A stretch of DNA of 64,000 nt from Escherichia coli (lineage in GTDB: Bacteria; Pseudomonadota; Gammaproteobacteria; Enterobacterales; Enterobacteriaceae): assembly GCF_003334305.1 (NCBI RefSeq), contig NZ_QOWS01000003.1; one strand, written 5' to 3'. Shown here piece by piece: positions 39,376-39,830 of this stretch; the stretch's first letter is position 1, and every line of letters starts with the position of its first letter. The translations under genes and the position numbers were made by a program. The notes beneath the pieces are model-generated. The model was not told where the DNA came from. It saw only the letters and a list, made by a program, of their open reading frames with translations, and did not search any database.

Positions 39376-39405
39376 TTGTGTTTCGCTGAAAAGCGATTGT
39401 CGTGT

Positions 39406-39438
39406 GAAGCCGGAGTGGGAGACTGCTCCGGCTTTTTA
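39406..39438 (+). terminator. Rho-independent terminator of the deo operon
   Basis: GAAGCCGGAG-loop-CTCCGGCTTT followed by TTT. Confidence 0.7.
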
Positions 39439-39440
39439 GT

Positions 39441-39538
39441 ATCTATTCATCAATAGCAACTGATTTATAGATTTACTATTATTTTTCATATGGATAGAAA
39501 ATAAAATCTATTCAAGTATCTATTCACGAATCTATTCA
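39441..39538. repeat. Direct repeats of ATCTATTCA, three of them tandem at 12-bp period
   Basis: ATCTATTCA at 39441, 39506, 39518 and 39530; related ATAGAT cores nearby. Confidence 0.6.
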
Positions 39539-39649
39539 TTTATGTTCAGCCGTCATCCAGGAAGGGCATATCAGCAACTCTGGTGGACAACCATAAATTT
39601 CTGCCATTTTGCTTTTGATGTTTGAGCTAAACCGTTCCGTCTTTTCGAT

Positions 39650-39799
39650 CTATTTTAGAGAATTAATCGAGATACCTAACATTTTACTTACTTCAGCAAG
39701 CGATAATTTATGCCTGATACGCACGGCGGCTAGCCAGGAAATACGCTGGCTTAACATTAAATTGATAATCTCCCGCTCCTGGTTTTCCAGATCGATCAT
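39650..39799 (-). CDS. hypothetical 49-aa helix-turn-helix protein; possibly a remnant of a larger HTH gene
   Basis: MIDLENQEREIINLMLSQRISWLAAVRIRHKLSLAEVSKMLGISINSLK; ATG 31 nt downstream of lplA stop with AGGAAGGGAA ribosome-binding site; C-terminal segment fits an HTH pattern; below ORF-track length cutoff. Confidence 0.35.
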   Translation of the reverse strand: MIDLENQEREIINLMLSQRISWLAAVRIRHKLSLAEVSKMLGISINSLK

Positions 39800-39830
39800 A
39801 TTCCCTTCCTTTGGTATTTTAATCAGCGAG

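Follow-up and report, generated by a model that had tools for sequence, protein, structure and literature searches.

In place of yjjJ, the deoD-lplA gap of an Escherichia coli contig carries what is very probably a nonsense-broken helix-turn-helix gene, next to a repeat array shared with yjjJ loci

RESULTS

Anatomy of the deoD-lplA gap

We analyzed a stretch of 64,000 nucleotides from Escherichia coli (RefSeq assembly GCF_003334305.1, contig NZ_QOWS01000003.1), hereafter called the window, with a focus on a short open reading frame (ORF) located between deoD and lplA, where strain K-12 carries yjjJ. The gap is bordered on the left by deoD, coding for purine-nucleoside phosphorylase (239-aa ORF, positions 38656 to 39375, plus strand), and on the right by lplA, coding for lipoate-protein ligase A (ORF at 39831 to 40847, minus strand). 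Both are annotated as such in strain E2863, which is 100% identical to a 601-bp query spanning the gap. The gap itself, 39376 to 39830, measures 455 bp and contains no yjjJ; in K-12, yjjJ is 1,332 bp long and lies between the same two genes. A preliminary description of the region had thus been correct in reporting a gap of about 455 bp in place of a gene of about 1.3 kb, and the 49-codon ORF that it had noticed on the lplA strand, 31 nt past the lplA stop codon and behind a good ribosome-binding site, is present in all its elements. The ORF (39650 to 39799, minus strand) codes for MIDLENQEREIINLMLSQRISWLAAVRIRHKLSLAEVSKMLGISINSLK, and its ATG is preceded by AAAGGAAGGGAAT; the 31-nt spacer that separates it from lplA (39800 to 39830) includes the ribosome-binding site AGGAAGG at about 39803 to 39811. 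A consensus terminator scan found no terminator-like site between lplA and the ORF, and none of the known RNA families was found in the gap.

The stop codon of the ORF is an amber TAG at 39650 to 39652, beyond which the same frame runs for 37 further sense codons to a TGA at 39536 to 39538. The ORF had been described as ending immediately after a helix-turn-helix (HTH) segment; in fact, the TAG is a premature stop at codon 50 of an 87-codon frame (39536 to 39799, minus strand), and it splits the predicted recognition helix (residues 45 to 54) halfway. The exact 264-bp interval is annotated in E2863 by RefSeq with the Prokaryotic Genome Annotation Pipeline (PGAP) as 'helix-turn-helix domain-containing protein, pseudogene, internal stop'. 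Intact 87-codon alleles are found in strain 5392 of sequence type 131 (ST131; WP_000566247.1), strain PAR (WP_000566145.1) and O157:H7 (WP_000566150.1), and the gene of strain 118UI has a frameshift instead of the TAG. Alignment showed that codon 50 is CAG, CAA or CGG in the other alleles, pointing to a C-to-T transition that turned Gln50 (CAG) into an amber stop in the window. The signature is that of a nonsense pseudogene: longer intact orthologues, a stop in place of a sense codon in a conserved frame, and the internal-stop flag of PGAP. Hence the 49-codon ORF is very probably the 5' part of a nonsense-broken 87-codon HTH gene of the XRE type, which represents an alternative to yjjJ at this locus. 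The feature in the window is an ordinary pseudogene, already flagged in RefSeq, of a known kind of protein and at a common polymorphic locus.

The TAG is neither a sequencing error nor a mutation private to this strain, as a census of 5,426 complete E. coli genomes, made with 33-nt queries and every 28-mer seed covering the variant base, found the same codon in 1,691 of them. In the same census 2,036 genomes had CAG and 169 had CAA at codon 50 (CAG or CAA in 2,205 together).

Two haplotype backgrounds carry the TAG. The allele of the window is close to that of O157, and E. coli GTEN_23 (L097) has a PAR-like haplotype; pS between these two TAG alleles is 0.13. The existence of two backgrounds suggests either recurrent C-to-T change at CAG or intragenic recombination.

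The 87-codon gene and its product

The intact orthologue matched the Pfam family HTH_3 (PF01381) with an independent E-value of 2.5e-5 over residues 25 to 76, as well as HTH_25 (4e-4) and HTH_19 (1e-3). A Sigma70_r4 match of similar strength (1.7e-5) reflects only the common HTH motif. The protein also matched HTH_VI of PADLOC (1e-5) and phrog_7241, a 'transcriptional regulator' family (2e-9); family scores were modest overall. A profile built from ten family members matched CylR2 in the PDB sequence set (E-value of 0.003). AlphaFold2, run on a 10-sequence alignment, predicted an N-terminal helix (residues 4 to 18) followed by helices at residues 22 to 29, 34 to 41, 45 to 54, 59 to 69 and 73 to 76, with a predicted local distance difference test score (pLDDT) of 89.9. 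The best PDB matches of this model found with Foldseek were all of the XRE/Cro type (CylR2, C.BclI, DdrO, SinR, 434 Cro and P22 c2), with target-normalized TM-scores of 0.6 to 0.76; none had an E-value below 0.001, as expected for a domain so small. The AlphaFold2 model and the Foldseek matches thus agree on a five-helix DNA-binding fold in which helix 2, a turn and helix 3 form the HTH.

The window product retains the N-terminal helix, helices 1 and 2 and half of helix 3, and it ends inside the latter, such that no complete HTH domain is encoded. By itself, the 49-aa peptide had no HTH family match in NCBIfam. The lost C-terminal half is rich in residues that are invariant in the family, namely, I51, E52, E55, S58, A66, Y69, C71, L75, L76 and P79. 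According to the model, the TAG removes helices 4 and 5 and the conserved tail, and we infer that the 49-aa product would be unable to form the five-helix DNA-binding domain. The preliminary description had also considered a small standalone regulator cotranscribed with lplA. The kind of gene was rightly recognized, namely, an 87-aa protein with an XRE-type HTH encoded directly after lplA, but in the window this gene is truncated at codon 50 and is a RefSeq pseudogene.

Orthologues of the same length, with 40 to 51% identity and encoded directly after lplA, were found in a Superficieibacter sp., in Enterobacteriaceae bacterium UBA3516 and on one Logan contig. Wherever the family was found, the gene directly follows lplA, and the family is tiny and confined to the Enterobacteriaceae. 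A word-indexed search with the 87-aa protein returned only Escherichia and Shigella, and an exhaustive phmmer search of 1.84 billion representatives returned 32 matches. A wider family was rejected, the remaining phmmer matches being generic HTH proteins or proteins in unrelated contexts, such as P0084 beside a PDDEXK/DUF2357 gene. One cluster with '71% identity' (P0036) was discarded as assembled in Logan from E. coli reads that look bisulfite converted; two such Logan assemblies (SRR13921544 and SRR18740011; L088 and L089) consist of E. coli sequence in which T stands for nearly every C and which had nevertheless been gene called. Database searches, including PADLOC, revealed no link of the 87-aa protein to a defense system or a toxin, and literature searches by locus tag or WP accession yielded nothing relevant.

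One might argue that the ORF arose by chance in AT-rich intergenic DNA and corresponds to no gene in any strain, as it is short, has a G+C content of 41%, yields weak family E-values in the 1e-5 range and has left no trace in the literature. However, the 87-codon frame is conserved, with a ratio of nonsynonymous to synonymous polymorphism (pN/pS) of 0.11 to 0.18 among intact E. coli alleles, the orthologues are syntenic and of the same length in spite of their distance, and the fold is confidently predicted and matches XRE structures. A chance frame is therefore extremely improbable. The HTH gene is real where it is intact, given its conserved frame, its same-length syntenic orthologues and its confident predicted fold.

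Several observations weigh against simple inactivation in the window. The ribosome-binding site has been preserved, and a very large clade is fixed for the TAG allele. This allele is also found on two different haplotype backgrounds, which could mean that the truncation is tolerated or even favored. The sign of relaxed constraint in the TAG lineage is thin: relative to the O157 allele, the window allele has two nonsynonymous changes and one synonymous change, i.e., a pN/pS of 0.52 versus 0.11 to 0.18 among intact alleles, with very small counts. The 49-aa product might then be a functional truncated HTH protein or microprotein cotranslated with lplA that, for example, binds another protein or acts as a dominant-negative partner. 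A strong ribosome-binding site kept 31 nt after lplA, the TAG allele in 1,691 genomes and the intact N-terminal helix and helices 1 and 2 would fit such a role. We nevertheless consider it very unlikely, as the stop interrupts the recognition helix, with loss of the part that is best conserved in the family. Moreover, the window lineage carries F16L and L57F at otherwise conserved positions, and other lineages have inactivated the gene differently, as seen with the frameshift in 118UI and the many truncated clusters in protein databases, which fits simple decay. A nonsense-broken gene thus remains the preferred reading.

The start of the gene is also involved in a 13-nt inverted repeat, in which positions 39798 to 39810, covering the ribosome-binding site and the start of the ORF, can pair with 39559 to 39571 (codons 76 to 80) with 12 of 13 nt complementary. 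Such a structure could occlude the HTH ribosome-binding site. By our rough estimate, about 0.06 such pairs would arise by chance in 455 bp. On visual comparison, the pairing looks weaker in the alleles of ST131 and PAR, so the repeat is probably due to chance.

Relation of the ORF to yjjJ

We addressed the proposal, made in the preliminary description, that the ORF is the N-terminal HTH remnant of the HTH-kinase YjjJ (also HipH), with the kinase part deleted. YjjJ indeed carries an HTH at its N terminus (PMC8262856), the window has retained the region upstream of yjjJ, and such leftovers exist elsewhere (E. coli WB61 and Phytobacter). However, the K-12 locus is oriented like the window and yjjJ is on its plus (deoD) strand; the ORF is on the opposite, minus strand and reads toward the repeat array described below. 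A BLASTP comparison of the 87-aa protein with YjjJ yielded nothing (best E-value of 0.2 over 6 residues), and tblastn gave no YjjJ match in the loci with the HTH allele. The local alignment score between the allele-specific DNA (39545 to 39830) and yjjJ was within the distribution obtained with shuffled sequences in both orientations, and the G+C content is 41% for the allele-specific DNA versus 54% for yjjJ. The full-length 87-aa orthologues furthermore form an independent family. The ORF thus has neither similarity to YjjJ or its N-terminal HTH nor the strand and start position of yjjJ. Strand, BLASTP, tblastn and shuffled DNA alignment together rule out the proposed origin, whose probability we regard as negligible.

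True remnants of yjjJ look different. In E. coli WB61 (L098; NZ_CP020025.1, 673687 to 673878), an internal deletion has left the first 140 nt of yjjJ on the plus strand, fused to the end of lplA. In Phytobacter diazotrophicus (L029), codons 1 to 49 and the C-terminal tail are left on the deoD strand after an internal deletion.

Distribution of the two alleles

We found yjjJ in 1,348 of the 5,426 genomes of the census. The HTH allele was detected in about 4,069 with the 601-bp query and in 3,905 by megablast of the allele-specific 286 bp. As 1,348 and 4,069 add up to 5,417 of 5,426, very few genomes could hold both, judging from totals and not genome by genome. E. coli is thus dimorphic at the deoD-lplA locus, with either yjjJ or the HTH gene, and K-12 is of the minority type. 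The initial expectation of a yjjJ gene at this site reflected a K-12 bias that is misleading: its absence is the normal state for some three quarters of E. coli.

The TAG form of the HTH allele also has three matches on records labeled as plasmids, which may be mislabeled chromosomal contigs or captured chromosomal segments. In the yjjJ allele of E. coli XJ5.2 (L006; NZ_CP074354.1), the insertion sequences IS200C and IS1A lie between the deoD terminator and yjjJ and part the distal upstream region from the gene.

The locus was also collected from 80 Enterobacteriaceae species using LplA as an anchor. Most lplA-deoD gaps are empty and 60 to 110 bp long. Full-length yjjJ is present in six loci, those of Escherichia albertii, a Citrobacter, Kosakonia pseudosacchari, Pseudocitrobacter, Leclercia and Silvania; the HTH gene is found in three loci and remnants in three. 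Four more yjjJ orthologues, with 48 to 58% protein identity and the same neighborhood, were identified in a relative of Erwinia tasmaniensis, in Salmonella enterica, in Cedecea davisae and in a Pantoea.

Gaps with neither yjjJ nor the HTH gene (L010, L044, L060, L068, L070 and L071) contain species-specific palindromic units resembling repetitive extragenic palindromes (REP) or bacterial interspersed mosaic elements (BIME). That of Raoultella planticola (L070) has four tandem units of about 70 bp, and the deoD-lplA slot is a hotspot for small repeat elements. In the window, the nearby deoB-deoD spacer (38577 to 38655) is 79 nt long versus 56 nt in K-12 and holds a palindromic unit, GCCCTCACCCCGGCCCTCTCCCACAGGGAGAGGGTGAAAAC, where K-12 has a simple hairpin. 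Units similar to this palindrome are multiplied in the lplA-deoD gap of L068.

A conserved repeat array upstream of yjjJ

Analysis of the left part of the gap revealed four exact copies of the 9-mer ATCTATTCA on the plus strand, one distal (39441 to 39449) and three in tandem with a 12-bp period (39506 to 39514, 39518 to 39526 and 39530 to 39538). The 64-kb window contains five exact copies, one of them outside the gap, versus 0.4 expected, and none of 100 shuffles reached five. The distal copy directly follows the deoD terminator (39407 to 39440, plus strand), a hairpin with arms AAGCCGGAG and CTCCGGCTT, a 10-nt loop and then a T-run, which the consensus terminator scan missed because the loop is longer than 8 nt.

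Alignment with K-12 showed that this terminator is common to the HTH and yjjJ alleles. The terminator and one ATCTATTCA copy are identical, followed by a diverged spacer of about 55 bp. A 37-bp island, AAATCTATTCAAGTATCTATTCACGAATCTATTCATT, is then identical in both alleles and runs to the yjjJ ATG, with unrelated flanks; from the position of this ATG to the lplA stop codon, there is no homology. The idea that yjjJ was lost from the locus is supported in this respect, because its upstream region is still present. The TGA stop codon of the HTH gene sits within the last repeat. In the window an ATG is found where the yjjJ start codon would sit (39542 to 39544); this may be coincidental, as the same three bases make up the His86 codon of the minus strand. 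One other HTH locus (L022) has no ATG at the equivalent position.

The array is not particular to E. coli. Outside E. coli, all 16 occupied loci that we examined have ATCTATTCA, and about 64 empty or unresolved loci lack it throughout 9 kb. In the four additional yjjJ orthologues, a distal copy is separated by about 60 bp from two or three tandem copies, which follow one another with a 12-bp period up to the ATG. The placement of the distal copy with respect to the deoD terminator is shared by K-12, E. albertii, Erwinia, Cedecea, Salmonella and others. Upstream of yjjJ (L002, L009, L014, L020, L028, L056, L072 and L092 to L095), the array stops 2 to 4 nt short of the ATG, and no Shine-Dalgarno sequence is obvious. 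The array is conserved across genera while the spacers diverge. Four copies are found in K-12 and E. albertii, and the repeats are decaying in E. coli HTH alleles: ST131 and PAR retain two exact copies, and 118UI has lost one unit. This comparison marks the array as a deeply conserved cis-element of yjjJ/hipH, from Erwinia and Pantoea to Escherichia.

A constitutive promoter, TTTTCA-18-TCTATT, has been reported between deoD and yjjJ in K-12, together with H-NS binding (PMC3946193). Both hexamers recur in the window, at 39483 to 39488 and 39507 to 39512 (element at 39483 to 39512, plus strand), with the -10 hexamer inside the first tandem repeat. This promoter-like element points rightward, antisense to the HTH pseudogene and lplA. 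If active, the orphaned yjjJ promoter would thus drive antisense transcription into both.

By analogy with the operators of hipBA, the simplest reading of the array is that of a candidate operator bound by the N-terminal HTH of HipH. Against an operator role, a screen using chromatin immunoprecipitation with exonuclease digestion (ChIP-exo) in K-12 saw no binding of tagged YjjJ to DNA (PMC8464067). No description of the array was found in the literature searched, and a query with the 9-mer returned only unrelated primer sequences. The tor box CTGTTCATAT resembles CTATTCAT; a possible link to TorR found no support in the literature examined that deals with both yjjJ and TorR.

DISCUSSION

The deoD-lplA locus of E. 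coli has two forms. The first carries yjjJ/hipH, a HipA-family kinase gene, on the deoD strand, and the second an unrelated 87-codon XRE/Cro-type HTH gene with its own ribosome-binding site on the lplA strand. The window corresponds to the second form, interrupted by a C-to-T change at the Gln50 codon; the truncated 49-aa peptide may still be made. As the HTH start codon is located 31 nt after lplA with no terminator-like site between them, we infer that the gene is cotranscribed with lplA; its truncated product has presumably lost its function. Both forms share their left flank, i.e., the terminator, the distal ATCTATTCA, the promoter-like spacer and the three tandem copies, which argues for a precise replacement of the yjjJ coding region. 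The HTH form would leave the control region of yjjJ orphaned, its repeats being putative operator sites.

The wider distribution of yjjJ, in both Erwiniaceae and Enterobacteriaceae, favors it as the older occupant of the slot. However, the HTH alleles are themselves old, with about 50% identity.

Conceivably, the repeats might serve the HTH gene. The intact small HTH protein would then be the partner of the array and might repress the orphaned yjjJ promoter, whose unrepressed activity would run antisense into the HTH gene and lplA; the truncation in the window would derepress this promoter. In keeping with this idea, the proximal repeat contains the HTH stop codon in E. coli and in three other loci (L008, L022 and L027), despite about 50% protein identity and fully diverged spacers, and those HTH alleles have kept exact 9-mers at both the distal and the proximal site. 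We nevertheless deem this unlikely. One locus (L087) has the HTH gene without the array, the repeats are decaying in the E. coli HTH alleles of ST131, PAR and 118UI, and the array belongs to yjjJ across the Enterobacterales. In addition, the repeats are direct, whereas XRE dimers normally bind inverted ones.

Both ideas may be combined in a scenario that we likewise regard as speculative and rather improbable. The array would be an autoregulatory operator of HipH/YjjJ, recognized by the N-terminal HTH of the kinase, and the slot an ancient polymorphism of the Enterobacterales in which a kinase toxin alternates with an unrelated XRE repressor recruited to silence the orphaned promoter. If this is true, both partners are gone in the window, and the promoter runs unopposed, antisense to lplA. 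Our preferred reading is the more modest one of a broken HTH gene that replaces yjjJ next to the array of the latter.

The broken gene matters little in itself, being a nonsense-inactivated copy that is flagged already, at a locus where K-12 is in the minority. Our most useful finding concerns the ATCTATTCA array conserved upstream of the yjjJ start, a concrete candidate operator for the poorly understood toxin HipH, whose control has been stated to be unknown (PMC8262856). The array makes autoregulation by the HTH of HipH directly testable. The natural HTH alleles, whether intact or truncated, offer ready-made backgrounds without the kinase but with the array, which is of relevance to the toxin-antitoxin field.

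The 87-aa protein is most akin to the small regulators of the XRE/Cro-C1 type, such as CylR2, the controller proteins C.BclI and C.AhdI, the N-domain of SinR, 434 Cro and P22 c2. Its predicted five-helix domain superposes on them at 1.5 to 2.1 Å over 53 to 60 residues. It differs from them by an extra N-terminal helix (residues 4 to 18) and a conserved C-terminal tail, CP..LL.CP.WM, and the domain is cut at residue 49 in the window. With HipB and the Xre-type antitoxins of type II systems, it shares a small XRE-type HTH and weak matches to PezA, Xre-like-HTH and an antitoxin family of PHROGs, and HipB overproduction was reported to counteract YjjJ toxicity (PMC9948734). Unlike those antitoxins, the HTH gene has no adjacent toxin gene: it is flanked by lplA and deoD in all examined loci with the HTH allele, and in no locus inspected was it found next to yjjJ.

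YjjJ/HipH itself (K-12 b4385), a HipA-family Ser/Thr kinase toxin, is encoded in the same deoD-lplA slot, and the window keeps its upstream region with the four ATCTATTCA copies and the promoter hexamers. The HTH gene, in contrast, lies on the opposite strand and codes for a protein of 87 rather than 443 aa, with no sequence similarity to YjjJ and no kinase domain. The region upstream of yjjJ is reminiscent of the operator arrays of hipBA, with its four repeated 9-mers that coincide in part with the reported -10 hexamer and take up the leader as far as the ATG. Its repeats are direct with a 12-bp period, however, and not palindromic. The hipBA operators, which overlap the promoter, are autoregulatory binding sites of the HTH partner, whereas binding of HipH to the yjjJ array is putative and was not seen by ChIP-exo (PMC8464067). 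In the window, unlike in hipBA, the array stands without its cognate gene.

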